A stretch of DNA of 64,000 nt from Candidatus Peregrinibacteria bacterium (GCA_963708185.1 OY970195.1:1344001-1408000); one strand, 5' to 3'; shown: positions 21,540 to 37,523, counted from the first letter of the stretch. Numbers and translations: made by a program. The notes: generated by a model from the sequence alone, not told the origin.

Positions 21540-21646
21540 GCGGCTGGAGGAAATTCGAACCTATTTTACCACGGGGCGGAGTTTGTGTCCCTGTGTTTAG
21601 ATGAGGGACAGAGAGTCCGCTGGGTATAGTTATAGCCATAAACAAC

Positions 21647-21724
21647 TGCATAGTCTCATGTATTTATGCATAATTTTGCATAGTTTCATAAAAACTTGCA
21701 TAGTTTTGCATAGTTTGATAGTAT
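21647..21724 (+). promoter_or_regulatory. Sigma70 promoter overlapped by five phased TGCATA repeats
   Basis: TGCATA at 21647, 21667, 21677, 21697, 21707; -35 TTGCAT 21696-21701, 17-bp spacer, TGn-TAGTAT -10 at 21719-21724. Confidence 0.7.
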
Positions 21725-21749
21725 AAGGCTACAATCATTTATTAGTATC

Positions 21750-22478
21750 ATGGATAAAATCTTATTAAATATTACAGAGGCGGCTCAATTCATAGGTGTA
21801 TCGGTTGATACGCTTAGAAGGTGGGATAAAGATGGAAAAGTAATAGCTATTCGTGCAGGCGGAAAAGGCACGCATAGATTTTATAGAAAATCCGATTTAG
21901 AGCTTTTCTTAAAAGACCCCTTTAGTCTAGCAAAGTCATGGGCATTTAGCCCAAATCCATTTGAGCCTGAGAAGGAATTTTATTGTCCAAATAGCTCAGT
22001 TTTTCAAGGAAGGCTTACAAAACTAGAAGCAATACTGCAAAAAACGAAAGAACTTGAAACAGATTTTTCCCTTATAACATCCATTACTGGTGAAATTGGC
22101 AATAACTCTTTTGACCACAACCTTGGGAACTGGCCTGACATAAACGGAATATTTTTTGCTTACGATATCAATAAACGAATGGTCGTTTTGGCTGATCGTG
22201 GAATTGGAATATTGCAAAGTCTGAAAAGGGTAAGGGAAAGTTTAACAGACGATAAAGCTGCGCTTGAAGTTGCGTTTACCGAAATAATTACAGGTAGAGC
22301 TCCAGAAGATCGTGGGAATGGACTTAAATATGTAAGAAAAGTTATTGAAAAAAGTTCAATGAGTCTATTTTTTGAAACTGGAGATGCTCAACTTGAACAA
22401 AAACCACATTCGTATGATATCCATTTACAAAAAAGTGGAGACAATTTCCATGGATGCTTAGCTCTTATAAGATTTTAA
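21750..22478 (+). CDS. MerR/excisionase-type HTH fused to a GHKL (anti-sigma-kinase-like) domain
   Basis: AAQFIGVSVDTLRRWD...HRFY; N-box EIGNNSFDH, G1 DRGIG, G2 RGNGL. Confidence 0.8.
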   Translation: MDKILLNITEAAQFIGVSVDTLRRWDKDGKVIAIRAGGKGTHRFYRKSDLELFLKDPFSLAKSWAFSPNPFEPEKEFYCPNSSVFQGRLTKLEAILQKTKELETDFSLITSITGEIGNNSFDHNLGNWPDINGIFFAYDINKRMVVLADRGIGILQSLKRVRESLTDDKAALEVAFTEIITGRAPEDRGNGLKYVRKVIEKSSMSLFFETGDAQLEQKPHSYDIHLQKSGDNFHGCLALIRF

Positions 22479-22490
22479 TCTTACTAAAAT

Positions 22491-22784
22491 ATGAAAATTG
22501 ATCTTAAAAAATTCGGTACGACACTTACTTCAAGGCAACTTGGCAAAGAAGCATTCGCAGCATTTCGACCTATACTCGAAAATATCAATGAAAGTGAAAT
22601 TATTGAAGTAGATTTTGAAGGTGTAAATACATTTTCACCTTCCTGGGGAGCTGAATTTTTGACACCTCTTGAGAACATGTTTCCAGGGAGAGTATTTCTT
22701 GATTATACTAAGAACCCATCAGTAAAAATCACACTTGAATTATTAGAGAATATTATTGGAAAAAAATTCCAAATCAGACAATAA
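22491..22784 (+). CDS. STAS-like (DUF4325-type) protein
   Basis: LTSRQLG, VDFEGVNTFSPSW; 97 aa directly after the GHKL gene. Confidence 0.8.
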   Translation: MKIDLKKFGTTLTSRQLGKEAFAAFRPILENINESEIIEVDFEGVNTFSPSWGAEFLTPLENMFPGRVFLDYTKNPSVKITLELLENIIGKKFQIRQ

Positions 22785-22787
22785 TCT

Positions 22788-23672
22788 ATGGCAACCAATA
22801 TCCCTCAATCATTTCAAAAATTAAAGCAAAACCTTGAAATTACTGATTTGCAAGGTACGACAGTTTCAACACGACAACAAAATGTCCGTAAGGTAATGGA
22901 AGCGGGAATGCAAGTACTTGATTCATTCCTTACAGGTTCATACGCACGCAGTACGATGATTGCTCCTTTAAAAGAAGCAGATGTGGATATTTTTATAGTC
23001 TTGGACCCTAAATATTATTTTCACTACAACAATGGACAAAATGGGGGACAAGGCGGTTTGCTCGATTTAGTAAAAGGTACTTTGCGGAAAACGTATACCA
23101 ATACACCTGATATAAGCAGAAACGGACAAGCTGTAACAATTAGATTTGAAGATTTTGTAGTTGATGTTGTGCCAAGTTTTCATAGGCAAGGTGGTGGTTT
23201 TTTAATACCAAATTCCATAAATCAAAGCTGGATTGAGACAGATCCTAAAAAACATGTTGATATTATGGTTGCCGCAAACCAAACACACAATGGCGACCTT
23301 GTCCCTTTAGTCAAAATGATCAAATGCTGGAACAGAAATAACGGGAAATATTTTAGCTCATTTCATTTGGAAGTATTGGCTCTCCAAATTTTACAAGGCG
23401 TCACTATTTCAAACTTTTGGACTGGAATGCGCTATTATTTTGATAAAGGACGGACAATGATTGCCCAAAGAACACCTGATCCTGCAGGTTACAGCGGTAA
23501 TATTGGAGGCTATATCAATACACAAGAAAAACTACAAGAATCCATTGCGAAATTTCAACTCGCATACAGTAGAGCAATTAAAGCCGAAGAGTTTGGCCTT
23601 CGTGGAAACACAAGAGATAATATTGAAATGTGGATTAAAATATTTGGTAATTACTTCCCTTCCTATGGATAA
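22788..23672 (+). CDS. cGAS/DncV-like nucleotidyltransferase (SMODS/CD-NTase)
   Basis: GSYARST...DVD, DVVP, WIETDP..H, LVKMIKCWN, SFHLE, DPAG. Confidence 0.88.
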   Translation: MATNIPQSFQKLKQNLEITDLQGTTVSTRQQNVRKVMEAGMQVLDSFLTGSYARSTMIAPLKEADVDIFIVLDPKYYFHYNNGQNGGQGGLLDLVKGTLRKTYTNTPDISRNGQAVTIRFEDFVVDVVPSFHRQGGGFLIPNSINQSWIETDPKKHVDIMVAANQTHNGDLVPLVKMIKCWNRNNGKYFSSFHLEVLALQILQGVTISNFWTGMRYYFDKGRTMIAQRTPDPAGYSGNIGGYINTQEKLQESIAKFQLAYSRAIKAEEFGLRGNTRDNIEMWIKIFGNYFPSYG

Positions 23673-24207
23673 TCAAACCCGCACAACTGCCGAGAGGGCT
23701 GTTTCAAAAACCAAAAAAGAAATCATTAAAGAAGCAAAGCGTATTGAAGAAAGCCTGCTACATTCATCTAAGGGACATTTTGCTGCAGCTCATACTTGGA
23801 GCCATTTTCATCTAATTATTGGAATACCAATGGTTTTACTTTCTGGCATTGCGGGGGCATCAGCTCTTGTACAATTTGATCCCTCCCATGTATACGCTGG
23901 TAGCATTTCAATATTAGTTGCAGCATTATCGGGGGTAATGACATTCTTAAATCCAAATGAAAAGACGAGTATTCATCTGGAAGCGGGCAATGATTACGAT
24001 TCATTGATGAACAAAGTTAGAATATTTTCGTCTATTGATTGTTGGCGTGATGAATCTGAACAAGTCTTAACAGAAAAATTGAAATACTTTTCAGAACAAA
24101 AGGACAATTTGAATAAAAAACATCCTCAAATACCTTTTTGGGCTTATTTTAGAGCTAAAAGGGGCATTAAAAATGGAGAAGGGGATTACATGGTGGATAA
24201 AAAATGA
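23665..24207 (+). CDS. SLATT-domain 2-TM effector
   Basis: SSKGHF.AA..W, two TM helices, FLNP...H..AG..Y..L, AKRGI; 8-nt overlap with the CD-NTase. Confidence 0.82.
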   Translation: MDNQTRTTAERAVSKTKKEIIKEAKRIEESLLHSSKGHFAAAHTWSHFHLIIGIPMVLLSGIAGASALVQFDPSHVYAGSISILVAALSGVMTFLNPNEKTSIHLEAGNDYDSLMNKVRIFSSIDCWRDESEQVLTEKLKYFSEQKDNLNKKHPQIPFWAYFRAKRGIKNGEGDYMVDKK

Positions 24208-24276
24208 TCTCCAAATTTCTTTCTAATAAGCCCATTTTACGTGTGATTTTATAAAATTATTATCTAAATTATTTCA

Positions 24277-25056
24277 ATGACCAATGGCGAACTTTCTAAT
24301 CTGATACCCGAATTTCTTTATGATAAACGAGCCTATTCCAGCCAATTTTTTAATAGTACGGGGATTCCTGAAGAATTTCGTCAGTTTGTTAATAAAAAGG
24401 GACTAACTATTGATGACTCAGACTCATCTAGATTTCGTGAAGCATTTTGGCGGCTAGTCTCACGCGATTTAGTGGCTCCTGGTAATGAAAAAGGTGGCGT
24501 GGCTCGACTCCCCTTCGTATCAATTACGGAATATGGCATAAAATGTTTTGAAGAAGGGAAAATTTTACCCTATGATCCTGATCATTTCATAAATTCACTC
24601 GTTGCTGCCATCCCAGGCATAGATGACATAATAATGCTGTATTTTGAGGAATCCGTTAATTGTTTTACAAATATGAGTTATCTAGCAAGCGCTGTCTTAA
24701 CAGGATGCTCCATTGAGAGAATGGTTATCTTTTTAACCGAGGAATTTTTTAAAAAAATTGATCCAAGTCTACAGACAAACTATCAAAAAAATGTATTACA
24801 TTACGAAAAAGTCGGCAAAAGAACAGAAAAGTTCATACACTTTATTGATACGAATCAACTTGATAATAGTTTTCCTATATCAGATCAAGAGAAATTAAGG
24901 GCTCTTCTCCCGTCTATTGTTAACCTCATTCGTATTACTCGTAATGAAGCAGGACATCCTACTGGTCGAGTTCTAGAACGAGATGAGGCGCAAGCCAACC
25001 TACTACTTGCAAAAGAAGGAATAAAATTTTCCTATCATTTTCTTTCAAAATTTTGA
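24277..25056 (+). CDS. Putative wHTH + HEPN-like protein
   Basis: EAFWRLVSRDLV..ITEYG wHTH-like N-terminus; EESVNCF...ASAVLTG and RNEAGH (RxxxxH). Confidence 0.6.
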   Translation: MTNGELSNLIPEFLYDKRAYSSQFFNSTGIPEEFRQFVNKKGLTIDDSDSSRFREAFWRLVSRDLVAPGNEKGGVARLPFVSITEYGIKCFEEGKILPYDPDHFINSLVAAIPGIDDIIMLYFEESVNCFTNMSYLASAVLTGCSIERMVIFLTEEFFKKIDPSLQTNYQKNVLHYEKVGKRTEKFIHFIDTNQLDNSFPISDQEKLRALLPSIVNLIRITRNEAGHPTGRVLERDEAQANLLLAKEGIKFSYHFLSKF

Positions 25057-25067
25057 AGGAAGTGCAA

Positions 25068-25217
25068 CTACAAGTCATTTGGCTTTTTGCTAATTAGGCT
25101 ATAAAAACTGAGAAGCTCTTGCCCCATTTCTTCTGCTTCTGCAAAGGTTAATTCTTTGCCAAACTCCTTTTTATAGATTTCTATGAATTCTTGAACAGAT
25201 TTAGGGTTTAGTTTCAT
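25068..25217 (-). CDS. 49-aa small protein (paralogue of 31704-31856)
   Basis: MKLNPKSVQEFIEIYKKEFGKELTFAEAEEMGQELLSFYSLISKKPNDL; ATGA overlap with the mrr stop; below the ORF-track cutoff. Confidence 0.7.
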   Translation of the reverse strand: MKLNPKSVQEFIEIYKKEFGKELTFAEAEEMGQELLSFYSLISKKPNDL

Positions 25218-26110
25218 TCCTCAGTAAAATAATCCGTATCAATATCTTTGATCTGGTAAGTTTTCTTGGTCGTAACACCCAAATCGTGGTCAATCATCAG
25301 GTCAACAAGCTTTTGCCCGTCAATGATGACAATATTTTTACGGGCAATTTTCAGGAGATTTTCGGCATCCCTGGGAAAACGTGAGGTCGTGATAAACACG
25401 CCTTTGCTGACGCCGTTTAGTTCCAACGTGCCGACAAAATCACGAACCATGGAAGCAGACACTGGATTGCCCTCCTTGAAGCGTTTTGCCTGAAATAAGA
25501 TCGTATCTAAGCCTAATTTGTCCTGAGTTATTAAACCGTCAACTCCGCCATCCCCTGATCTTCCAGTAACTCGTCCCTTCCCGTATCCCATGGCAGTCAG
25601 CAAATCCAAAACAACCTGCTCAAAAAATGCTGGCGAATTGGCTTTGAGTCTTTCAAGCAAGTTTGAGGCTAGGGCAGCCCTTAATCGCAGATAGCCCTCT
25701 TCCAGCAGTTCATCAGGTGTTTCGGTTTCATTGATAGTTTTTGGTTCTTCTTTTTCATCTTGTTTTGATACATTTCTAACTTCCAGAAAATCAGGAAATT
25801 GTTCCAAATATTTAGCGTTGATAGCTTTAATTCCTGTTTTCAAAACACGCATGCCATCATCCGTTATTTGTACCATCCCTCTGTTTGGAGAAATTATTAG
25901 CCCAGCTTGTTTCAGATAAGTCCTAGCCCAAGACACTCTATCTTTCGCAATTAAACCATTACCACTTGGGTACATTGCTGTCTTTTCCGCTTCGGATAGC
26001 TTCAAATCGCTTAACAGCTCCTCGGAGATCTCCTTCATGCTTTTTTGCTTTCCATCCTCCAGTTTTTTGAGCAGAGGAAACATAAATTCATGGTATTTCG
26101 GAATTGGCAT
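25214..26110 (-). CDS. mrr: Mrr-family type IV restriction endonuclease
   Basis: Mrr_N (RVSWARTYLKQAG) plus catalytic DGGVDG...QAKR...GVFITTS. Confidence 0.92.
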   Translation of the reverse strand: MPIPKYHEFMFPLLKKLEDGKQKSMKEISEELLSDLKLSEAEKTAMYPSGNGLIAKDRVSWARTYLKQAGLIISPNRGMVQITDDGMRVLKTGIKAINAKYLEQFPDFLEVRNVSKQDEKEEPKTINETETPDELLEEGYLRLRAALASNLLERLKANSPAFFEQVVLDLLTAMGYGKGRVTGRSGDGGVDGLITQDKLGLDTILFQAKRFKEGNPVSASMVRDFVGTLELNGVSKGVFITTSRFPRDAENLLKIARKNIVIIDGQKLVDLMIDHDLGVTTKKTYQIKDIDTDYFTEE

Positions 26111-26346: not shown

Positions 26347-29300
26347 TTAAGACTTCAAAACGATCTCTCTCTCTTCGGGAGTGAGGTCATAGAGGTCAAA
26401 AACCATGTTGTCAATAGTCTGGTCTTCTTGTTCGATTTTAGTTTTGAGATTCAAAATTTCTTGTTTGTTTTTTTCAAAGAAATCAAGAAGCTCACCTTTC
26501 TTTTTAAGGTCCAATTTTTTGATACCGAGGGCCTTGATGAAGCTGTCAAAATCGAGTTCATAGAATTTTTCAAGCTTTGTGCTTACTTTTTGGAGCTGGA
26601 ATTCTTGTTGAAGGAGTTTGAGGGATTTTTGGAGTTTTTCATAAAAGTTTTCCGATAACGATAGCATGATGTTGGCCTTCTCTATAAATGGATTTTGAGA
26701 TCCACGTGGTATTATTTTTATAGAAAATTGATCTAAATGTTTTCGTTTTATATAAGGGAAAACTTCAGCATTGGTGATGAAAAATTTATTGTAAATATAT
26801 GTAAACAGACTGGAATTTAACAGTGACAATATGTAGTTTTCATCGTATTTCTCAGATTTTAAAACGATATTATAAAGCGACTGGATGGTAAAATATTGAT
26901 TAGTATCAAGTGTTGCTATCAATTTTCGCCCTGTTTTTCTTAAAAGAATTTTCTTTTTTGCTAAAAAAACTTCTTCATTGTCATTGCTGTGAATTTTTGA
27001 TTTATCGAAATTGATGTACATCCCAGCATCAAAATAATGCCATTTTTCAATATCTTTTCCACTTAATACCTTTTTACTATTTGAAAAAATTGGAGAAGTG
27101 GCAAGCATCGTATCTTGGTCACCGGTCATTATGCCGATGTAATTTAATGCTATTTCCCCTAATTGAATCGATCCAATCTTCATTTTTTGCAATATTTTGT
27201 CTTCGTTTTCCTCTGCTGGAAAATCAAAGATAAAATTTTCATTCGTATAATATTTACCTTGCTGCATCTTCTTGCCTTTTTCACTGTCACCTTCAAATGA
27301 AATCAGTCCATTTTTGATTCCTGTTTCTTTCTTAAAAATGGAAATAACGCTATCTACAACAACATTTTCAAATACTTTTGAATGAGGCTTAAAGAAAAAT
27401 TCAATTTGGCAATTATCTAGAATAAATTTTCTGATTTTGAAAGAATAAAAATTTTTCATAAAATTCCATGGAGTAATGAGTCCAATTTTTCCTCCATTTT
27501 TTGTGAGCTTTATTGATTTCTCAATGAATAAAGTATAAAGGTCAATTTTGTCGTAAGCTGTTTCAAATTTAGAAAGAAAAGTTTCTTTAAGTTTTTTGTT
27601 TATCTTTTCGTACTTGCTTGTTACGTACGGCGGATTCCCAACAATCACATCAAATCCTCCATTTTTAATGATTTCCGAAAATTCTGATTCCCATTTAAAC
27701 TCACGCTTACCTGCAATAGTGGGGTCATCAATTAAACTATTCCCGCATTTAATATTGTTTTTGAGGCTAACAAGTTTTTCTCCTTTTCTGGCTGTTTTGA
27801 GCCACAATGAAAGCTTTGTGATTTCAACGCTTTCAGGATTCAAATCAACACCGTAAATATTGTTTTGGAGGAGTGACTTGATGTAACTTTCAACATTGAA
27901 TAAGTCACCCTTCCCCCCTGAAATGTCGGTTAAAATAGCCCCAATTCTTTTATTTTCAGCCAAAAAATAATCATAAACTTTAACAAGGAATGCGCCGCTT
28001 CCGCAAGCGGGGTCAAGAACCTTGATGTTTCTTAATTTTTCTCTGTATTCTTCGTAAGCCGTTCTCATGCGCTTATAGTAATTTTCATCTGTTAAATCGG
28101 TATTAACTCCGTGTTTGGTTAAAATGAACTGTTCCTGTTCTTCCAGATACCTCCCAAGTGAGTTTTTAACGATGTAATCGACGATATAATCGGGAGTATA
28201 GTAAATTCCATCCTTCTTACGTTTGGACGTTTTTAAATGGGCTTCAGGCTCTTCGGTTGTTTTTTCAGCAATACTTTTGAGTTCTTCAAGGTCGCTAATG
28301 GATTGTTCAAATATATGACCAAGGATGTTGACGCTCAGGTCTTCGCCAAAATCATACTTTCCAAGCTCAACAAATTTTTTGCAGATTTCATCATCAATTT
28401 TCAGGCCATTTAATGCTTCATCTTCTTTGAAAAGTTCGCCGTTGTAACCGTCGGGAATGCCAAGTTTTTCACTTCCGCGATCAATGGCCGTAAAAAAGCT
28501 TTTCATAATATCCCAAATTGGAATGGTCAAACCAAGCTTTTCCGTATGGAAAACAACCTCCTGCAATTTGTCGTCTGGCAAAAGGTCCAAGTCTTCACAA
28601 AAGCAAACAAAGACAAGGCGATCAATGATCTTTTGAGCTTTTTCAACAGCTAGAACATAGAAGCTTTCTCGGAGCCGCGCTTCCTGGTTGTTTTTCAGAA
28701 TGTTCTTGATGAGCTCTTGTCTTAAATCTCGATATTTTCGGTAAAATTCCTTGGTGATTTGTTCCTGCTCAATACGAATGTCGGAAAGAAGCTTGAGCGT
28801 GTTCGTTTCGCCACTTTTGGCAATGAAATTTTCAGCATTGAGGAGGTAGTAAAATTTGCGAAACTGGAAATAATTGTCTTTTGGGTCAACAAGGCTTTCA
28901 AGCGTGAAACTTTCAAAATCGAGCTGGTTATCTTTGAGGAGGCGGATTTCAAAAAAGTTTGTGGCAATCACAAAGTCACATTCCTTGTATTGTGGCTTAT
29001 ATTTAAAGGCCTGTTGAACTGGACTCAAACTTCCCTCGCGCTTTTGAGATTTGTCGAGAGAAGTGTTTACGTCCTTAATTTCTACAACGGCAATGACGCG
29101 CCGTTTTTCTTCGCTAAAATAGCCAAGAATAGCGTCAGGCTTTTGTCCGCCTGCCTCAACATTTCCTTTTGGGTCGATAGTATAGATTTCATTGGGAAAC
29201 CCCTTGTATCCAAGGATTTCAATGAAGAAACTTTGATTGAAGGCTTGTTCGCACTGGCTTTCAGATTTTTTATGAAGTGACTTGTTTTCATAGGCTTCAT

Positions 29301-29400
29301 GCCACGCTTTGACTTTGGCTAATTTTAAATCAAAATCGGGAATCTCATATCCTTCGAGTTTGGCTTTGATAGCCTTATTTTTAAAAAGTCCTGAAGTCAA
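26347..29400 (-). CDS. Type IIG restriction-modification enzyme (endonuclease + N6-MTase + TaqI-like TRD)
   Basis: PDAILG...VVEIK nuclease, GIYYTP, VLDPACGSGAF, GNPPY; probable TTG start at 29400 (ORF track 29439). Confidence 0.92.
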   Translation of the reverse strand: MTSGLFKNKAIKAKLEGYEIPDFDLKLAKVKAWHEAYENKSLHKKSESQCEQAFNQSFFIEILGYKGFPNEIYTIDPKGNVEAGGQKPDAILGYFSEEKRRVIAVVEIKDVNTSLDKSQKREGSLSPVQQAFKYKPQYKECDFVIATNFFEIRLLKDNQLDFESFTLESLVDPKDNYFQFRKFYYLLNAENFIAKSGETNTLKLLSDIRIEQEQITKEFYRKYRDLRQELIKNILKNNQEARLRESFYVLAVEKAQKIIDRLVFVCFCEDLDLLPDDKLQEVVFHTEKLGLTIPIWDIMKSFFTAIDRGSEKLGIPDGYNGELFKEDEALNGLKIDDEICKKFVELGKYDFGEDLSVNILGHIFEQSISDLEELKSIAEKTTEEPEAHLKTSKRKKDGIYYTPDYIVDYIVKNSLGRYLEEQEQFILTKHGVNTDLTDENYYKRMRTAYEEYREKLRNIKVLDPACGSGAFLVKVYDYFLAENKRIGAILTDISGGKGDLFNVESYIKSLLQNNIYGVDLNPESVEITKLSLWLKTARKGEKLVSLKNNIKCGNSLIDDPTIAGKREFKWESEFSEIIKNGGFDVIVGNPPYVTSKYEKINKKLKETFLSKFETAYDKIDLYTLFIEKSIKLTKNGGKIGLITPWNFMKNFYSFKIRKFILDNCQIEFFFKPHSKVFENVVVDSVISIFKKETGIKNGLISFEGDSEKGKKMQQGKYYTNENFIFDFPAEENEDKILQKMKIGSIQLGEIALNYIGIMTGDQDTMLATSPIFSNSKKVLSGKDIEKWHYFDAGMYINFDKSKIHSNDNEEVFLAKKKILLRKTGRKLIATLDTNQYFTIQSLYNIVLKSEKYDENYILSLLNSSLFTYIYNKFFITNAEVFPYIKRKHLDQFSIKIIPRGSQNPFIEKANIMLSLSENFYEKLQKSLKLLQQEFQLQKVSTKLEKFYELDFDSFIKALGIKKLDLKKKGELLDFFEKNKQEILNLKTKIEQEDQTIDNMVFDLYDLTPEEREIVLKS

Positions 29401-29408
29401 AATAATAC

Positions 29409-29548
29409 AAAAAGGGCCACCTAGACGTAGCACCAACAATTAGCAAGCCGTAAGGCTCTCCAAATGTTGTACGCTAGGTAACCCCAGCTTGTTCATTTGG
29501 AGAGCAAAAAAACGAGTTTTTGCCTTATAACTTACGAATTGTTGGTGC
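29409..29548 (-). ncRNA. Putative structured 5' leader RNA of the R-M operon
   Basis: Two perfect 12-bp inverted repeats plus a 15-bp loop-to-3'-flank pairing with G-U pairs on the minus strand. Confidence 0.55.
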
Positions 29549-29681: not shown

Positions 29682-31346
29682 ATGAAAGATGTAAACCCTA
29701 AACAATACAGAGTATCTGTTCGTCGAAAGCTCATTGATGCAGCAATTCAGAACAGAGAAAAACCCCACACCGTTACTACCTCCACGGGAGAAGAGGTGAT
29801 TTTGGGTTTAATTGGGGCTACATACGCAATTGATGGGGACTCTTTTTATGCAAATCCGCGATATGAAGATTTCTATTTTCGAGAAATACAAAATGACAAA
29901 ACCTTATGGAATTTTTATAATCGGTGGATTCTTTTAGGAATCAATCATGATTTTTCCGCAGAGGAAAAGCTAAAATTTGTACTTTATTGCAGCCAAAAAT
30001 TAAAAGAACACATTCCTCGCAAACAGCAAATGGTGATTTTATGGCTTTTCTTTGATGTTTTTCATGATCTTATTAGTGCTTTAATCCAGCGCGCTGATCT
30101 CTATTATGAAAAATATATTCCCGAATATCTCCAAAGAATAAACTGTATTTCTGCCGTTTTACGTAAAGTATTGGTTGCTTTTCCTGTTGAAGACTTCAAC
30201 AGTATTTTGCAGAAAATACAGACATTCGCTACCGATCTCAAAAAAAATCTTAAAGTCTTGGGTGAGTTGAAAGATGAATATGACTATAAAGTCGGATCAA
30301 TAGGGGTCATACTTCAAGAATCCTTTAAGCGATTTTATTTTGAAGAAATTTTTCAGAATAACATTTTTTCTATATCTCCAATTTTAGGTGAAAGGGATGA
30401 TTTTAAAATCGCGTTTGAAAAAAAATGGCAAGACCTAAAGCTATATCAAAATAGCAGCTATGGATTTTGGGTGGTCCCATTTATAAATCCAGCTGATTAT
30501 TTTCGATATTTAGAATTCACTTTGGTAGCTGTCGAAAACGTTGAAAAACAGGCTGTTGCTTATCAGGTTTTGGATTTTTTGACCTATGATGTTTTTTCTA
30601 AAAATCCTTATAACAAGCCATATTATGAATATATAATCAACCGACTGATAATTTTTATCGAAAAAAGGTACGTCAAACCGTTTCTTAAAAAAGTTGCAAA
30701 AAATTTAAAACCCCAAAGACAAGTTTCTGACCTTGAAAAAGATGAAGAATTTTTAAAGCCATTGGCGAAAATTGTTAATGATTACGATCCATTTTTTCTC
30801 TTATTTGAGGCAAAATCTTCAAAGCGCTTGAAAGGTTTTGATGATGGATTGTTTGCGCCTATAGGAAAAAACGGAAAGTTATTTTTACTCGGGAATTTGA
30901 GTGAGGGACGTGGTTTTGCTTTTATAGCTTATATTAAGGCAAAAATACGCACTTTGGTGAAAGAATTTATCGGTCTTAAAGAATGGAAAAATAAAAGAAA
31001 ATTGTCATTAGATCAAAGCATATCGAGTGACCAGGATGATCTAACATTAGAAGATATTTTGGCTTTTGAGAAAGATTTAGTTTCTGAAGATCAAGAAGAA
31101 GATTCAAATGACTATGCGTATCCACCTTGTGATACTCAAGATAATGAGTGGTATATTGATAAATTTGCAGAAATAATTGAAGTAGCCCCAAAAACTTTGA
31201 GACGGTGGGATAAAGAAGACTCATTCACTCCTCATAGGAGAACAAGAGGCAAGAAAGGCATTCGCTGCTATATTGAAAGTCAGATTCCTGAAGCTCGAAG
31301 AATCAAAGCTCTAAAAGAGCGAAGACAAAAACACCAAGTCATTTAA
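29682..31346 (+). CDS. Hypothetical protein with sigma70-like region 2/3 motifs and C-terminal MerR-type HTH
   Basis: FIAYIKAKIR, LSLDQSISSDQDDLTLEDIL, FAEIIEVAPKTLRRWD...IRCY. Confidence 0.55.
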   Translation: MKDVNPKQYRVSVRRKLIDAAIQNREKPHTVTTSTGEEVILGLIGATYAIDGDSFYANPRYEDFYFREIQNDKTLWNFYNRWILLGINHDFSAEEKLKFVLYCSQKLKEHIPRKQQMVILWLFFDVFHDLISALIQRADLYYEKYIPEYLQRINCISAVLRKVLVAFPVEDFNSILQKIQTFATDLKKNLKVLGELKDEYDYKVGSIGVILQESFKRFYFEEIFQNNIFSISPILGERDDFKIAFEKKWQDLKLYQNSSYGFWVVPFINPADYFRYLEFTLVAVENVEKQAVAYQVLDFLTYDVFSKNPYNKPYYEYIINRLIIFIEKRYVKPFLKKVAKNLKPQRQVSDLEKDEEFLKPLAKIVNDYDPFFLLFEAKSSKRLKGFDDGLFAPIGKNGKLFLLGNLSEGRGFAFIAYIKAKIRTLVKEFIGLKEWKNKRKLSLDQSISSDQDDLTLEDILAFEKDLVSEDQEEDSNDYAYPPCDTQDNEWYIDKFAEIIEVAPKTLRRWDKEDSFTPHRRTRGKKGIRCYIESQIPEARRIKALKERRQKHQVI

Positions 31347-31413
31347 ATGGCTTAAATCCATCATGGCTTTGTCCATATTTTCCAGATAGTGAACAACACT
31401 ATCTGTATTTTAA

Positions 31414-31707
31414 ATGAACGAAGTAACGACCACTCAAACTCAAGTCACTGAGGTCCAAATAATACCTGTGAAGCCCACTAATGGCCTCATAGCTTTTGCG
31501 AGCTGCGTTATTGATGGCAAGCTTCTTTTAAGTTCGATTGGTGTTTTTACGAAGTTGGATGGTTCTGGGTATCGTATTACGTTCCCGACAAAAAAGGTCG
31601 GGCGGGAAGGTTTTAACGTGAACGTTTTTAACCCTATCAACAAAGAGGCCTGTGAAGCCATCACGCGGGCGATTTTGGCGAAGGTCGGTAATCTATTTGA
31701 AATATGA
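31414..31707 (+). CDS. SpoVG-family nucleic-acid-binding protein
   Basis: VTEVQI...GLIAFASCVIDG...ITFPTKK...FNPINKE. Confidence 0.78.
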   Translation: MNEVTTTQTQVTEVQIIPVKPTNGLIAFASCVIDGKLLLSSIGVFTKLDGSGYRITFPTKKVGREGFNVNVFNPINKEACEAITRAILAKVGNLFEI

Positions 31708-31856
31708 AAATCCCCAAAGAAGCAGTTAGCCAGTTTCAAGAGCTTTACCGTGTGAAATACGGTAAGGAGCTGACTTTTGAGGAGGCTGAGATTGAGGCGC
31801 GCGAATTACTGAATTTATACGCATTGTCACAAAATAAAAACATTTTTTATGAATAG
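31704..31856 (+). CDS. 50-aa small protein (paralogue of 25068-25217)
   Basis: MKIPKEAVSQFQELYRVKYGKELTFEEAEIEARELLNLYALSQNKNIFYE; overlaps both neighbours. Confidence 0.7.
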   Translation: MKIPKEAVSQFQELYRVKYGKELTFEEAEIEARELLNLYALSQNKNIFYE

Positions 31857-32397
31857 AGAGCTTGAAATCCAGCTTATGAAAGATTCTGAAATTGTCGTGC
31901 TTTTAAAGTCCCTTATTTTGGAGAAGGCGAGCAGGCATGAGGCGGTTTTAAAGGTTGTTCAAGGCTGTCCTGATAGCAAAATTGATCAAATTTTAAGTGG
32001 TCCAGCGACCGAAGCGGACATACGGCTTATTTTTGAGCGATTTGAGGCTGATTTGGAGATTAAACGGCTTGAAATTGATCTGGCGAACATGTGCTATGCC
32101 TTGAACAGCAATAAAACGGACCATAAAAATATAACCGACTGGGACCGTGCTTATGAACATGCTACATGCGGCGTTAGTATTGATCGGGTAGTGAGCTTTT
32201 TGTTAGGTATTGATCGTTTCAATCGCAATATTAAGTGTCCTTTCCATGATGACGGTAAAGCTTCATTGAAAGTTTACGTGAAAAACAACCGTTTTGTGTG
32301 TTTTGGATGTGGTATTCGTGGCTCTCCAATTGATTTTGTTATGTATCACAAAAACTGCTCCTTCCGCGAAGCAGTTCTGTTTCTTTCTAATCTGTAA
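31849..32397 (+). CDS. CHC2 zinc-finger (primase Zn-binding domain) protein
   Basis: CPFHDDGKASL...FVCFGCG...IDFVM...SFREAV. Confidence 0.85.
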   Translation: MNRELEIQLMKDSEIVVLLKSLILEKASRHEAVLKVVQGCPDSKIDQILSGPATEADIRLIFERFEADLEIKRLEIDLANMCYALNSNKTDHKNITDWDRAYEHATCGVSIDRVVSFLLGIDRFNRNIKCPFHDDGKASLKVYVKNNRFVCFGCGIRGSPIDFVMYHKNCSFREAVLFLSNL

Positions 32398-32410
32398 TTC
32401 CATTTTAGTT

Positions 32411-33808
32411 ATGACCAATAAATATGTCAAAAATACTATTCAGAACTTAAAAGAAGAGATGGCAGAAAATGCCATTTCTTCAGGTCCGCCCGATTTATCC
32501 GATTCTACAAAGGAGGGGAAACAAGACCCTATACCCAGCGGACTCTCTGTCCCTCCTCAAGTAACAGGGACACAAACTCCGCCTGGTATAGAGAGTGTTC
32601 TTGAAGCTGTCAGACAAACGGGAGAAAAACATGATTATGTTATCAAGGCTATTCTTGCTGTTTTCGCGTCAACTTTTCTTGTACGCAAAGACCCGATTTG
32701 GCTTTTGATTGTTGGTAATCCTTCCTCAAATAAAACAACTCTTGTCGATTTGATTTCTGGGCATGTTGATGTTTATCGACTTGATACGCTCACTGCTAAT
32801 CCTTTCAGTTCTGGGCAGAGGGAGAAAGAGAAACCGAAAGATCTTTTGCCATTATTGGATGGAAAGTGTTTTGTAATCAAAGAATATGCGACTATCTTTG
32901 GTAGAAGCGATGAAATGGTTAAGCAGCTCATTAGCGACCTTGTCGCTATTTATGACGGTGAATACGCAAAGCATTCTCCGACACGCGGCACGATTCGTTA
33001 TAAATCGTTTTTTTCTCATGTAGGATGCGTGACACCCATGGCTTTAAATTCACGGCAAGTCTATATGAGTGCGGTCGGGGCACGTTTTCTTTTTTTAAGG
33101 ATTGATTCACTTTCTGATGAAGAAAGAGACGATTCGATGAATGAAATTTTCTCTAATTCAAGAAAAAGTAACGCCGAAATTGTAGATGTTGTTTCCGCAT
33201 ATTGTCGCGTTATAAAGGATGTTATTCAGCAGGGCAACATTCCACAGATACCTTCCGAAGTGTTCAGCAAGTTAAAAGTGTTTGCCAGATTGATGGCGCG
33301 AGCGAGGGGAATCGTTATTACAAATCCAGTGAGTTATGAAGGGAATGACGGTAAAAAGCGGATTCATTATGAGGTTGATGATATTCAGATTGAAGAGCCT
33401 TTCAGGGCCTTAAAACAGCTCAAGAAATTCGCTGAATGTTTGGCTATTGTGAATGGTTCAAATGTTGTTGGCGAGGAGGAAATATCAATCGTGCAGCGGG
33501 TTGTTCTTTCTTCTATGCCAGTTCGAAGAGCCGATATATTGCGGGTTTTTGAAAAAGGAATTTTGTTTACCGTGAAAGAAGCGGCGGAAAAGCTTGATAA
33601 GAACAACAAGACTGTCAGGCGCAATTTGGATGAACTGGTGTCGTTGGGTGTCCTTGATACTGTGAAGGAAAGCGATACTCAGGCAAAAGCATATTTTATG
33701 AAGGAAGAGTATGCGGATGTTTTGGGTTTTAGTATTCAGCAAACAGAAACGGTCCAAGCCAATTCGCCTGAAAATTCAGCGGAAACTAAAGAGAAATTGC
33801 CTTTTTAA
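32411..33808 (+). CDS. AAA+/MCM-like ATPase (putative helicase) with C-terminal wHTH
   Basis: WLLIVGNPSSNKTT (variant Walker A), IYDG, GARFL arginine finger, AEKLDKNNKTVRRNLDELV. Confidence 0.65.
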   Translation: MTNKYVKNTIQNLKEEMAENAISSGPPDLSDSTKEGKQDPIPSGLSVPPQVTGTQTPPGIESVLEAVRQTGEKHDYVIKAILAVFASTFLVRKDPIWLLIVGNPSSNKTTLVDLISGHVDVYRLDTLTANPFSSGQREKEKPKDLLPLLDGKCFVIKEYATIFGRSDEMVKQLISDLVAIYDGEYAKHSPTRGTIRYKSFFSHVGCVTPMALNSRQVYMSAVGARFLFLRIDSLSDEERDDSMNEIFSNSRKSNAEIVDVVSAYCRVIKDVIQQGNIPQIPSEVFSKLKVFARLMARARGIVITNPVSYEGNDGKKRIHYEVDDIQIEEPFRALKQLKKFAECLAIVNGSNVVGEEEISIVQRVVLSSMPVRRADILRVFEKGILFTVKEAAEKLDKNNKTVRRNLDELVSLGVLDTVKESDTQAKAYFMKEEYADVLGFSIQQTETVQANSPENSAETKEKLPF

Positions 33809-33855
33809 TTCGTGGGCGCTTAACACAACCTATTATTTTTTATTTTTTTCACTTT

Positions 33856-34158
33856 ATGACACCATCAACCATCAAGGAAGTTTGCACACTTTGTAATGCC
33901 CTTTCTCATAAACTAGCCGAATGCCTGCAAACATGTACGCGTTATGCGGTAGAAGCAAATTGTGTGCCTTCTTTCTTTTACTGTGAAGCTTTGACTTTAC
34001 ATGCATCAGCCGAAATAAAAGGTGATGATGGAGCATTTGTTGATCTATGTAGGCTTCAACCTTTTTTGGCTTTAGCGGCTAAACATGGGGCATACATCAC
34101 TCCAGATTCAATCACGAAAAATGGAAACACTATCACCGTTGAGGTCACCATATGTTAA
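33856..34158 (+). CDS. Hypothetical protein
   Basis: 100-aa ORF co-oriented within the element. Confidence 0.45.
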   Translation: MTPSTIKEVCTLCNALSHKLAECLQTCTRYAVEANCVPSFFYCEALTLHASAEIKGDDGAFVDLCRLQPFLALAAKHGAYITPDSITKNGNTITVEVTIC

Positions 34159-34203
34159 TACCGTCTGTAACAATTAACTTTATATCTTTTACGCTTAAAA
34201 ACT

Positions 34204-34377
34204 ATGTCCTATAATCCAAACCACTATCAGTCCAAGAACGTTTATCTTCCAAAGGAGCTGTGCGCTTTTGCTGAGAAGAAAGCCAAAAGTCAGTTCATGA
34301 ATTTCAGTGTCTATATCAGGTCACTTATTGTTGAAGACCTGAAGAAAGAAACCCTGAATGCAAGGCCAATTACGTAA
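34204..34377 (+). CDS. Ribbon-helix-helix (CopG-like) protein, 57 aa
   Basis: SKNVYLPKELCAFAEKKAKSQFMNFSVYIRSLIVEDL; missed by the ORF track. Confidence 0.65.
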   Translation: MSYNPNHYQSKNVYLPKELCAFAEKKAKSQFMNFSVYIRSLIVEDLKKETLNARPIT

Positions 34378-34492
34378 TAATATCTACTGAATGAAACCTG
34401 CATGGAAGCTCTTATTCAGTTGGATTTAGGGCTTCGGTTCAATCTCTAATGATTTCGGCAAAAAATTTGAATATTTTTTAATTCTAACCTTC

Positions 34493-35014
34493 ATGACAAC
34501 ATCAAAAAAACAGCTTCTTGCGAATCAACAAAACGCCAAACTTGGTGGCGTAAAGACGGAAACTGGCAAGGAAGTCAGCAAGTTAAACTCTACGAAGCAT
34601 GGCTTATTGAGCCAGGAAGTTTTGTTAAAAGATGAAAACAAACCTGAGCTTGCCACTTTACGTCAACAATTAAATGACTATTTCCAGCCCGAAACAGGCA
34701 TGGAGCAAATCTTGGTGGATCGAATCATTGCCAATGTTTGGAGACTTAAAAGGGTGCTTAAAATTGAAACCGAAATGATTGAGAACGATTGTAAGCCTGG
34801 ATTTATGGAAAATGAGAAAAAGGGCTTGGGCACTGCTTTAAGTTACGATTTTGCGAATAATGATACTTACGGCAAACTTATTCGCTATGAGACCAGTATT
34901 GAGAGAGGACTCTATCGTGCGCTCCATGAATTACAAAGGATGCAGGCGCAACGGAAAGGTCAACAAGTACCTCTACCCGTTGTTATAGACGTGGAAATGA
35001 ATAAGGAAGAATAA
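34493..35014 (+). CDS. Conserved hypothetical protein of mobile elements
   Basis: KQLLANQQNA..GVKTETGK..S..N..KHGL and RYETSIERGLYRALHEL pattern. Confidence 0.7.
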   Translation: MTTSKKQLLANQQNAKLGGVKTETGKEVSKLNSTKHGLLSQEVLLKDENKPELATLRQQLNDYFQPETGMEQILVDRIIANVWRLKRVLKIETEMIENDCKPGFMENEKKGLGTALSYDFANNDTYGKLIRYETSIERGLYRALHELQRMQAQRKGQQVPLPVVIDVEMNKEE

Positions 35015-35042
35015 ATGGGTTCGTTTCGTAAAATTATTTTTT

Positions 35043-35657
35043 ATGGGTAGACACTATTATAGTAAAAAGGATACGGTCGAAGATTGTCTTATTGTGGGTG
35101 TCTTTTGGTTGAAGAGAAATGGGTATCTTGATGGTTACAAGCATGGCGGAATCACTTGGACCTCTGGCTCTGGAAGTCAAAGTACCATTGGGATCACGGT
35201 TTCCACCTGCATAGATTATAAATTCCTTCGGTTCAATTACACATTGACCCAAAATGAGAAGAAAGAGAATTACAATTATGTTGTAAGGATTGTTACTTCT
35301 AGGTGTAATTTCAAAGGAAGGAGATTTTGGTTTCTTTGTCCTCTTTTGAAAGGTGATCGTCCATGTGAAAGGCGTGTGGCGAAGCTCTATTTGCCACCTG
35401 GAGGAAAGTATTTTGGGTGTAGACAATGCTATGATTTGAGCTATAACACGAGAAATAAATATGATGGACGGTTTGCTGAATTCGGCAAGGTTCTTGATTA
35501 CGAAGCAAAGATGGAGAAGTTGAAAGATGTGGTCAAAAGAAAATATTACAACGGCAGGATGACAAAAAAATATAAAAGGTATCTGCAATGTGTTCAGGAG
35601 TTCAATCACGCCGCTCCGCTTCTTGCTGAAAGGATGAATAGATTATTATCTAACTAA
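35043..35657 (+). CDS. Hypothetical Cys-rich (Zn-finger) protein
   Basis: CNFKGRRFWFLCP...CERRVAKLY...FGCRQCYDLSY. Confidence 0.7.
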   Translation: MGRHYYSKKDTVEDCLIVGVFWLKRNGYLDGYKHGGITWTSGSGSQSTIGITVSTCIDYKFLRFNYTLTQNEKKENYNYVVRIVTSRCNFKGRRFWFLCPLLKGDRPCERRVAKLYLPPGGKYFGCRQCYDLSYNTRNKYDGRFAEFGKVLDYEAKMEKLKDVVKRKYYNGRMTKKYKRYLQCVQEFNHAAPLLAERMNRLLSN

Positions 35658-35673
35658 GTGCTAATATATGCTC

Positions 35674-35796
35674 GCAGTCCAAAATTCAGTTAATTTGTTG
35701 AGGGAGTATTTGTTTTGTTGCCTTTAGTGGGGCAACTGTGCCAATAAAGAATCCCTCAAGGAAACTGAATTGGACTGCCACGGTTGCTCCTCTTTG
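35674..35796 (+). ncRNA. Putative structured 5' leader RNA of the recombinase
   Basis: Nested stems plus a 12-bp loop-to-3'-flank pairing with G-U pairs on the plus strand. Confidence 0.55.
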
Positions 35797-35817
35797 AGGT
35801 CATTTACTTTATCTTTT

Positions 35818-37482
35818 ATGGAAAATATTAAATTTGCAATTTACGCTCGTAAATCCTCAACAGGTGAGGACCGTCAGGTACTTTCTATAGAATCTCAATT
35901 GGATGAGATGAAGGATTTGGCGCAAAAACTTGGGATTAGAAATTATCAGGTGTTTACCGACTCTCAAACTGCTCACAAGCCATATTTGAGGCCTGAATTT
36001 ATGAAAATGATTGCAGCGATTGATAGTGGAGAAATCCAGGGAGTGCTTTGCTGGAAAGCGGACCGTTTAGCACGGAATCCCCTTGAAGGGGGGAATATCA
36101 CCTATCTTTTGCAGAACAGCAAATTGAAGGTCATCCAAACCCCTTACAGTCGATATTTACCAACAGATAACACTCTGCCTTTAACGATTGAGCTTGGAAT
36201 GGCGAATCAATACAGTCTTGATCTTTCTAAGAATGTGAAAAGAGGTAATAAAACTAAAGTTGCCAATGGCGGTTATACAGGCGTTGCTCCTCATGGTTAT
36301 TTGAACGATCTTATTAACCATACCATTCTTCCAGATCCTGACCGCTTTGATCTGGTCCGAAAAATGTGGGACCTCTATTTGAAAGGAACGTATTCTTTAA
36401 ATCAAATATGCAAAATTGCAAATGAAGAGTGGGGGTTCCTAACATATCGAAGAAAACAAACGGGTGGTGCAAAATTGTGTATTTCGAGCCTTTACACAAT
36501 TTTCACAAATCGTTTTTATTATGGATGGATTCAATCTGGTGAAAATGCAAACTATGGCATTCATAAGCCAATGATTACCATAGCTGAGTTTGAGAAAGTT
36601 CAAGAACTATTGAGAAGACAGGGGAGGAAAGGGGAAACAAGTTACGAGTTTTCATTTACGGGTTGTATTAAATGCGGAGAGTGCAGTGCTTCAATAACAG
36701 CTGAGGAGAAAGTGAAATATGCTTGTCCTGGTTGTAGAAAACAGAATTCGGCTAAAAATCCGCATCGTTGCGGACGTTGTGGTTACAGTATTGCCAAAGA
36801 AGACGTAGCACATGGTCATTGGTATAAATATTATCGCTGCACAAAAAAGAAAGGTGCATGTTCACAGAAATGCTTTACTGCTGATGCTCTGGAAGGGCAA
36901 TTTGTTGATACTCTCTCCAAGATTGAAATAGACCCCGATTTTGAGCGTTGGGCTTTGCAGTGGTATAAATTCCTCAATCAAAACTCCTTTGATGAGAAAC
37001 AGGGGCAGAACGAATTATTTTACAGCAATTATCAAAAAGCTGAGGAGAAAATAAAGCGGTTAGTTGATATGCGGGCTGATGGTGAGATTGATAAAGATCG
37101 TTTTATTGCTTCCAAAGCTGAAGCGGAAACTGACCTTGCCCATTGGAAAAGCAAATTGAGCGAGGCTGAGAAGACAAGGAATCAATCATTAGCGGAGATT
37201 GAAGAGGCGCTTGGATTTATCCAAGGTATCCAGAAACGCTTTAGGGAAGGCTCCGTCCGTGACAAGAAATATATTTTTATGAAGGTTGGCTCGAACTTTC
37301 TTCTAAAGGACCGAATACTTACTTTAGATACCCAAAAAGCCTATTTAGCCTTTCGAGAGCTTCAAGATGACGTTGATACTCGGATCGAACCTAAAGATTT
37401 GCCTTCCATAAAAGAAAATAACCCCCTTTTGTATGAGAGGGTTTTAACATGGCAGGGCCAGAAGGAATCGAACCCTCGTTAA
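35818..37482 (+). CDS. Large serine recombinase (integrase)
   Basis: YARKSS catalytic Ser, DRLARN, recombinase domain, Zn ribbon (CGEC...YYRC), coiled coil; 3' end overlaps the tRNA. Confidence 0.93.
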   Translation: MENIKFAIYARKSSTGEDRQVLSIESQLDEMKDLAQKLGIRNYQVFTDSQTAHKPYLRPEFMKMIAAIDSGEIQGVLCWKADRLARNPLEGGNITYLLQNSKLKVIQTPYSRYLPTDNTLPLTIELGMANQYSLDLSKNVKRGNKTKVANGGYTGVAPHGYLNDLINHTILPDPDRFDLVRKMWDLYLKGTYSLNQICKIANEEWGFLTYRRKQTGGAKLCISSLYTIFTNRFYYGWIQSGENANYGIHKPMITIAEFEKVQELLRRQGRKGETSYEFSFTGCIKCGECSASITAEEKVKYACPGCRKQNSAKNPHRCGRCGYSIAKEDVAHGHWYKYYRCTKKKGACSQKCFTADALEGQFVDTLSKIEIDPDFERWALQWYKFLNQNSFDEKQGQNELFYSNYQKAEEKIKRLVDMRADGEIDKDRFIASKAEAETDLAHWKSKLSEAEKTRNQSLAEIEEALGFIQGIQKRFREGSVRDKKYIFMKVGSNFLLKDRILTLDTQKAYLAFRELQDDVDTRIEPKDLPSIKENNPLLYERVLTWQGQKESNPR

Positions 37483-37523
37483 CGGTTTTGGAGACCGCTG
37501 TATTGCCACTATACGATGGCCCT
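37450..37523 (-). tRNA. tRNA-Trp (CCA)
   Basis: AGGGCCA TCGTATAGTGGCAATACA GCGGT CTCCAAA ACCGT TAAC GAGGGTTCGATTCCTTC TGGCCCT GCCA; anticodon CCA, encoded 3' CCA. Confidence 0.96.

Follow-up and report, generated by a model that had tools for sequence, protein, structure and literature searches.

The question raised by positions 21647-25056 of a 64,000-nucleotide (nt) stretch of a Candidatus Peregrinibacteria bacterium genome (GCA_963708185.1, OY970195.1:1344001-1408000), which we call the window, is whether an antiphage operon is controlled by the two small genes that precede it. We refer to these genes as K, predicted to encode a helix-turn-helix (HTH) domain fused to a GHKL domain, and S, predicted to encode a single-domain STAS protein. 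They are followed by the genes of a cyclic oligonucleotide-based antiphage signaling system (CBASS). We think that K and S probably form an autoregulated switch that drives CBASS by read-through, on an island that carries a serine recombinase. The computational support is the gene content, a conserved operator with protein-DNA covariation, and a predicted K-S interface. The features concerned are:

21647-21716, + strand: operator array, phased TGCATAGTTT direct repeats over the promoter
21706-21735, + strand: putative promoter, with -35-like TTGCAT at 21706-21711, an 18-nt spacer and -10-like TACAAT at 21730-21735
21750-22478, + strand: K (gene 1), 242 amino acids (aa), with a BldC/MerR-like HTH at residues 1-55, a helical linker and a GHKL domain at about 80-242
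22491-22784, + strand: S (gene 2), 97 aa, single-domain STAS, DUF4325-like
22788-23672, + strand: CD-NTase (gene 3), the CBASS oligonucleotide cyclase, 294 aa
23665-24207, + strand: SLATT-type effector with two transmembrane segments (2-TM; gene 4), 180 aa, its ATG lying inside an open reading frame (ORF) of 23461-24207
24277-25056, + strand: gene 5, uncharacterised, 259 aa, with an RNEAGH motif

The five co-directional + strand ORFs occupy 21750-25056 and are separated by gaps of 12 nt and 3 nt, an 8-nt overlap and a gap of 69 nt. An earlier note, made from the sequence alone, had given this order of the first four genes and these distances, which match the ORF listing exactly. It had also read the genes as an HTH-GHKL fusion, a bare STAS-like protein with an FSPSW serine, and a type I CBASS of CD-NTase and 2-TM SLATT, in a probable host from the candidate phyla radiation (CPR). 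The three gene assignments are supported by the family matches, motifs and models given below. The host assignment is consistent with the genome size (1.437 Mb in a single contig, 99% completeness, against 0.5-2 Mb for genomes of the phylum sample) and with the named relatives of K, which come from Patescibacteria/CPR lineages.

The operator array has five direct repeats of 10 nt, with the sequence TGCATA(G/A)T(T/C)T, which begin at 21647, 21667, 21677, 21697 and 21707 and so have a spacing of 20, 10, 20 and 10 nt. All four exact copies of TGCATAGT in the window lie at 21647-21714 (0.66 expected), and the first coincides with 21647, the start coordinate of the earlier note. If a cluster means two or more copies on the same strand in 40 nt, the genome has just one, upstream of K; a regulon search of the genome found no second cluster. 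The array is conserved. Two or more copies of TG[CT]ATAG lie upstream of K, within 150 nt, at 62 of the 76 related loci, compared with 1 of 9278 background windows, and the remaining 14 loci mostly have variants such as TGGGTAG, TGTATAAG and TACATAG. Neighbouring repeats in the related loci are 21 nt apart in 47 of 83 pairs. We predict a promoter at 21706-21735, in which the -35-like TTGCAT sits within the last repeat and the -10-like TACAAT is followed after 14 nt by the ATG of K; a TAnn[AT]T hexamer exactly 22 nt from the start of the last repeat is found at 25 of 72 loci.

The HTH of K very probably reads these repeats, because base 3 of the operator goes with the identity of K residue 20, which stands just before the invariant TLRRW. 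The correspondence is without exception across 77 loci:

TGCATA[GA] operators: residue 20 is Asp at 42 of 42 loci with at least two copies, plus 4 single-copy loci and 1 with TACATAG
TGTATA[GA] operators: residue 20 is Gln (13), Met (9) or Thr (2) at 24 of 24 loci with at least two copies, plus 2 single-copy loci and 1 with TGTAGAG (all Gln)
TGGGTAG operators: residue 20 is Asn at 2 of 2 loci with at least two copies, plus 1 single-copy locus

The conserved operator fits the autoregulation that the earlier note had proposed, and autoregulation of K-S appears probable.

By sequence and structural model, K is predicted to be a BldC/MerR-like HTH fused to a GHKL domain. The HTH matches Pfam HTH_17 (6.3e-9) and MerR (3.7e-7) and NCBIfam HTH_BldC (6.3e-5), and its best PDB relatives in a search with the family profile are the BldC-DNA entries 6AMK (5.6e-6) and 6AMA (8.6e-6). 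BldC binds direct repeats head-to-tail, according to the accessible text of PMC5859096. The closest PDB sequence match of the K HTH is a MerR-like winged-HTH protein of Streptomyces that oligomerises on direct repeats, and the operator here is likewise an array of direct repeats, helically phased and not palindromic. Unlike BldC, which is a stand-alone global regulator of 68 residues, K carries its HTH fused to GHKL and has one target cluster in the genome.

The GHKL boxes are invariant in 23 aligned K homologues: E115/N119 (N box), D149xG151xG153 (G1) and G189xG191 (G2), with the invariant stretches GEIGNNSFDHN, LADRGxGIL and RGNGLK. The AlphaFold2 model of K has a mean predicted local distance difference test score (pLDDT) of 86.6, and its best Foldseek matches are Hsp90/TRAP1 GHKL domains (E 1e-5, probability 1.00). 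The template modelling (TM) score is low because the full-length model has several domains. K also matches PHROG 3364 (3.7e-12), and a distant prophage cousin described below matches HATPase_c_2 below the cut-off. The GHKL core family is small and isolated, with 304 representatives at E <=0.001 among 1.84 billion.

Between the HTH and GHKL domains the model has only two helices, at residues 57-105. This linker carries an invariant W64 and an invariant C79, candidates for a ligand- or signal-sensing site. Both are retained in sister forms of about 190-200 aa that lack the HTH (P0137, P0138, P0148, P0152, P0155, P0157 and P0185) and keep the conserved Trp, the YC motif, the linker and all GHKL boxes.

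S matches the DUF4325 'STAS-like' family at 1.8e-4 and 21.6 bits, under the 23-bit cut-off. Its AlphaFold2 model (pLDDT 95.9) has a beta-alpha STAS-like fold with helix 2 starting from P50, and the best PDB folds are RsbS, TM1442 and SpoIIAA (TM score 0.62-0.64, Foldseek E at least 0.098). The whole protein is a single domain; the HTH of the pair is on the kinase-like protein and the STAS is bare. The motif FS49-P-S51-W lies at the start of helix 2. We favour Ser51 as the phospho-acceptor because all 42 aligned sequences and all 68 motif matches have it, whereas position 49 varies among those 68 (Ser 42, Thr 23, Ala 2, Gly 1).

Modelling of the K-S complex, which the earlier note had put forward as a check, predicts binding with the conserved serine at the kinase site. 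The complex scores 0.87, compared with 0.00 for the best of three controls; runs agree in at least 95% of contacts, with partner pLDDT of at least 91. The modelled interface joins K 105-118 (the N-box helix) and 179-201 (the ATP lid) to S 46-51 and 75-88, and places Ser49/Ser51 at the ATP lid of K. The score passes a mark reached by 58 of 80 solved complexes and by 2 of 110 mismatched pairs, a pass that counts as likeness and not as proof. The model supports the view that K and S bind each other.

The genes behind S are predicted to encode a type I CBASS, because the CD-NTase is adjacent to a 2-TM SLATT and the neighbouring genes contain no match to the ancillary families Cap2/Cap3, HORMA and TRIP13. 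The CD-NTase assignment is secure, with matches to SMODS (5.9e-27), the PADLOC cyclase model (6.7e-100) and NCBIfam CBASS_cyclase_b (206 bits, cut-off 200). An intact CD-NTase has the nucleotidyltransferase motif GS ... DxD ... D, and here the motif residues are in place at G50-S51, D65xD67 and D126. The effector has two transmembrane segments and matches the PADLOC 2TM effector (4.4e-64) and NCBIfam SLATT_4 (3.5e-34). With other type I CBASS that have a 2-TM/SLATT effector, the locus has in common a CD-NTase plus membrane effector and an upstream pair of regulator genes. The type of regulator differs from CapW and from CapH with CapP, the other known CBASS regulators. CBASS is rare in the phylum sample, with 8 of 401 genomes including the present one.

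Gene 5 has RNEAGH (R-x4-H) at residues 222-227. The HEPN label that the earlier note gave it keeps this motif and does not gain a family, since no family match is significant (DUF4145, E 0.061). In the Atlas it belongs with uncharacterised clusters (0.97), with AF_1680 (0.89) and DUF4145 (0.87) as leads only. No + strand terminator was found before gene 5, and it may be co-transcribed with the operon.

We propose the following mechanism. K would bind the phased TGCATAGTTT repeats over the -35 of its own promoter through its HTH, with D20 reading base 3 of the repeat. S would dock where K has its N-box helix and ATP lid and would be phosphorylated by K on Ser51, or possibly Ser49. Whether this partner switch is bound or free would set the grip of K on the operator, and hence transcription. 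CBASS would be transcribed from the K-S promoter and would inherit K-S control, because the gap from S to the CD-NTase is 3 nt without a terminator; no terminator-like + strand site was found from K through to the SLATT gene's end. We infer the phosphotransfer, the co-transcription and the direction of control in this scheme, as well as its signal. We lean slightly towards K as a repressor and not an activator, because a repeat overlaps the -35 here and, in one subfamily, a repeat lies in the spacer between -35 and -10.

Elsewhere K-S is a patchy accessory two-gene module of Patescibacteria. There are 4392 relatives of K at E <=0.001 and more than 557 K-S loci in species-representative genomes; the pair occurs in 38 of 401 sampled phylum genomes and in none of 7 same-order and 13 listed same-class genomes. 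S directly follows K in 78 of 80 loci and lies 228 nt after it in one more, and the remaining locus is truncated by its contig end. After 69 S genes, the next gene is co-directional in 46 (within 30 nt in 15) and convergent in 21, and 2 have none. The close downstream genes include RadC (2), HIT, NUDIX, PRiA4_ORF3, desulfoferrodoxin, an APH-like kinase, TatC, DUF167, GIY-YIG and unknowns. No Pfam family is represented more than 3 times in the 94 downstream proteins, and PADLOC finds AbiEi in 3 and AbiEii in 2. At other loci the genes that follow the pair have no relationship to each other, and only a few belong to defence. The neighbours, 489 proteins, form 411 clusters; the largest of these is an artefact, an antisense ORF of S. 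The module is a generic one, found alone or ahead of unrelated genes elsewhere and joined to CBASS here.

Searches of mobile DNA gave few relatives. One K-like locus was found among 2.9 million viral contigs, so the pair is not commonly phage-borne there, and a plasmid search with K gave HTH matches only, plus one cousin in a Streptococcus prophage. In this cousin (L123 3677-4866, Streptococcus agalactiae CP147646.1) a 298-aa GHKL 'sensor histidine kinase', 26.5% identical over K 68-234 and matching HATPase_c_2 below the cut-off (2e-5), overlaps a 99-aa gene that matches DUF4325 (8.9e-11). GHKL and DUF4325 cousins are also present in 7 Streptococcus phages, just after the temperate-phage lysin gene and near the paratox gene.

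Several observations weigh against control of CBASS by K-S. The CD-NTase, SLATT and gene 5 are found at 0 of 80 K-S loci, and K or S at 0 of 31 metagenomic loci whose CD-NTase is 55-73% identical (13 of which have a SLATT gene, and most of which have a G+C content (GC) of 0.47-0.63); the combination of K-S and CBASS is seen in the present window only. At the nearest available K-S locus (L001; K 84% and S 83% identical) an AAA-type ATPase gene comes after the pair, across a spacer of about 300 nt. Behind many K-S pairs there is no gene in the same direction, and the module therefore has a role for which no cargo is needed. A survey of the pair found no association with defence. Given the 0 of 80 and 0 of 31 loci, the unrelated downstream genes and the 21 of 69 convergent neighbours, the pair is not a dedicated immune regulator. 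Homologous pairs occur mostly without defence genes, which the earlier note had named as a point against its own reading. Promoter-like hits lie inside S (15 overall, no excess over the 13.6 expected in shuffles), and CBASS could possibly have an internal promoter there. The kinase activity of K is itself our inference, because Pfam HATPase models do not match K (only HTH families do), a PDB sequence search gave HTH matches and no GHKL chain, and the Foldseek matches listed are Hsp90-type, with SpoIIAB absent among them. The K-S score may reflect model memory, because the solved SpoIIAB-SpoIIAA structures resemble the complex. For the non-HTH part of K, the best tree has 10 changes in the operator base and 10 in residue 20, but only one independent pair lies on supported branches and the covariation was not significant when tested in a phylogenetically independent way, so shared ancestry could also be the source of the covariation.

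As the main rival reading, K-S could instead be an autonomous self-regulating module (toxin-antitoxin-like, abortive-infection-like or a stress switch) that needs no downstream gene, with CBASS inserted behind it under its own expression signals and the state of K-S without effect on immunity. This is an unlikely but credible reading, to which the patchy spread, the variable contexts, the convergent neighbours, the mutual absence of K-S and CBASS at each other's loci and the fact that the sole operator cluster of the genome is that of K-S all lend weight. So do the cousins beyond the lysin gene in Streptococcus prophages and the VapKSC system, a kinase/STAS pair within a toxin-antitoxin system in the accessible text of PMC13373217. 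It has to accommodate read-through into the CD-NTase, which is hard to avoid with a 3-nt gap and no terminator, and the 15 other loci with a gene within 30 nt of S, a recurrent layout for driving downstream genes. There is also no evident toxin-like third gene or domain, and K, S and the CBASS genes all fall within the same low GC range (0.32-0.40). The probable control of CBASS by K-S is tied to one juxtaposition, with its 3-nt gap and shared low GC. A very improbable alternative is that S acts post-translationally, with unphosphorylated S holding the CD-NTase or SLATT inactive until phosphorylation by K releases it. VapS, a bare STAS antitoxin released by phosphorylation (PMC13373217, accessible text), is a precedent and is the top PDB sequence match of the S profile, at a non-significant E of 0.42. 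S, however, is 47-67% identical to 41 relatives with no CBASS nearby and shows no sign of adaptation to a CBASS partner, it has no VapS-like C-terminal tail, and the CD-NTase relatives at the 31 loci work without S.

The pair can also be compared with CapK and CapS, which the earlier note had named. In the accessible text of the paper (Chambers et al., EMBO J 2026, PMC13373217) CapS does bind DNA; the contrast that the note drew with an HTH on the kinase here needs correcting, since CapK too has an N-terminal HTH. As described there, CapK is an HTH-STAS-GHKL protein and CapS a STAS-winged HTH (wHTH) protein that represses at palindromes. CapK is turned on by single-stranded DNA (ssDNA) bound between its STAS and GHKL domains and needs W68 for this, while deletion of its HTH was without effect in the published assays. 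In that text capKS precedes immune operons in 348 of 443 cases and CBASS in 75 of 443, and about 20% of capKS loci lie beside restriction-modification (R-M) genes. The likeness is an HTH-bearing GHKL protein followed by a STAS protein with a conserved helix-2 Ser, here heading a CBASS operon with R-M genes nearby. Compared with the published description, K lacks an internal STAS and S lacks a wHTH, so that the sole DNA-binding domain of the pair is on K and faces direct repeats, whereas CapS binds palindromes. The CapK HTH is dispensable in the published assays, whereas the K HTH covaries with its operator.

It is improbable that K and S are a genuine CapK/CapS system in reduced form. The logic and gene order match those of CapK-CapS before CBASS, the N-terminal HTH is shared, R-M genes adjoin the operon, and K has W64 after its HTH where CapK has W68, a likeness in numbering only. 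Yet the 242-aa K has no internal STAS, which forms half of the ssDNA groove proposed for CapK in the accessible text, and S without a wHTH is therefore not a DNA-binding repressor. No longer or fused S-like proteins were found, and the only longer K-like proteins are 5 of 296-322 aa, none annotated HTH-STAS-GHKL; both are weak evidence. The S profile reaches VapS only at the non-significant level given above and does not find CapS. A family-wide link to immune operons was not found for K-S (0 of 80 before CBASS, against the 348 of 443 immune operons behind capKS), and a term search of the accessible text of PMC13373217 finds no mention of Patescibacteria, DUF4325 or MerR.

VapKSC, described in the same accessible text, resembles K-S in that a CapK-like kinase is partnered by a bare STAS and in that the distribution is patchy, often in islands. 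It differs in that VapK is a STAS-GHKL protein without an HTH and that a PIN toxin, VapC, is the third gene, of which there is none here. With the sigma-factor switches SpoIIAB-SpoIIAA and RsbW-RsbV, K-S has in common that the GHKL protein is small and keeps the N, G1 and G2 boxes, and that its single-domain STAS-like partner has, in the predicted interface, a Ser at the start of helix 2 that faces the ATP lid. It differs from SpoIIAB/RsbW in that an HTH fused to K takes the place of the sigma target and that similarity to HATPase_c_2 is not directly detectable. No sigma gene was found in or beside the operon. The operon also has no PP2C phosphatase; two SpoIIE-type genes and one PP2C_2 gene are elsewhere in the genome. 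We found no earlier description of an HTH-GHKL and bare STAS pair in the literature searched, and the K-S module looks undescribed, though the supplementary datasets of the CapK/CapS paper may list such loci.

We tentatively suggest, short of calling it probable, that K-S represents an undescribed class of one-operon partner-switch transcription factor that is widespread in Patescibacteria, in which an anti-sigma-type Ser kinase is the DNA-binding regulator, a bare STAS is its antagonist and substrate, and the pair plugs in before unrelated cargo, including abortive-infection systems such as CBASS. Under this class reading, and held equally tentatively with it, a BldC-like HTH would read phased direct repeats through a single specificity residue. 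K-S may be a simpler sibling or a forerunner of CapK/CapS. If true, this would be a third layout of kinase/STAS control after sigma-factor switches and CapK/CapS, with the DNA-binding domain on the kinase, and it would give a function to an HTH found dispensable in published CapK assays. It would also be among the few regulatory modules characterised for Patescibacteria, carried by about 1 in 10 sampled genomes, and would offer a recognition code in which operator base 3 pairs with K residue 20. At the present locus, a generic autoregulated switch would have been taken up to control a membrane-disrupting CBASS that lies on a mobile island, in a CBASS-poor lineage. The idea of the K-S pair as a marker of defence loci is not supported.

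The operon lies at one end of a low-GC stretch of about 16 kb, from about 21600 to about 37500, that looks like an integrated mobile island with defence genes and resembles an integrative element. GC falls from about 0.50 in host DNA to 0.32-0.40 from about 21600 and rises again near 38000. The other features assigned here are:

25214-26110, - strand: Mrr-type type IV restriction endonuclease, convergent on the operon
26347-29439, - strand: type IIG R-M enzyme, Eco57I/MmeI-like, 1030 aa, convergent on the operon
35770-37482, + strand: large serine recombinase, distal end of the low-GC island
37450-37523, - strand: tRNA-Trp, the island boundary

The serine recombinase ORF and tRNA-Trp overlap by 33 nt on opposite strands. 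No att-type direct repeats flanking the island were found. The remainder of the island (29682-37523) also encodes proteins of 554 aa (MerR HTH at the C-terminus), 97 aa (SpoVG-like) and 504 aa (wHTH), a primase-like protein with a CHC2 zinc finger, and three family-less ORFs.

Some relatives of the CD-NTase have other surroundings. In another genome of the phylum (L091 2719-4630, G145:C14), a 75%-identical CD-NTase is reduced to a 173-aa C-terminal fragment, which adjoins a transposase-like gene downstream of a DNA methyltransferase and a restriction-enzyme-like ORF, with no K-S; this is a decayed CBASS. At two metagenomic loci (L120 and L121, GC 0.61-0.63), a CD-NTase of 60% identity is preceded by ORFs of 304 aa and 97 aa. 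The shorter of these is not S-like in a phmmer comparison, and the two ORFs may be another kind of upstream pair.

At the operon end of the island, a tRNA T-arm look-alike at 21540-21560 was rejected, as it matches neither tRNA nor Rfam models. Just upstream of the operator array, at the GC boundary (21573-21620), is an inverted repeat of 17 nt, GCGGAGTTTGTGTCCCT / AGGGACAGAGAGTCCGC, which has a T-rich tail and could shield the island promoter from transcription that enters from outside.

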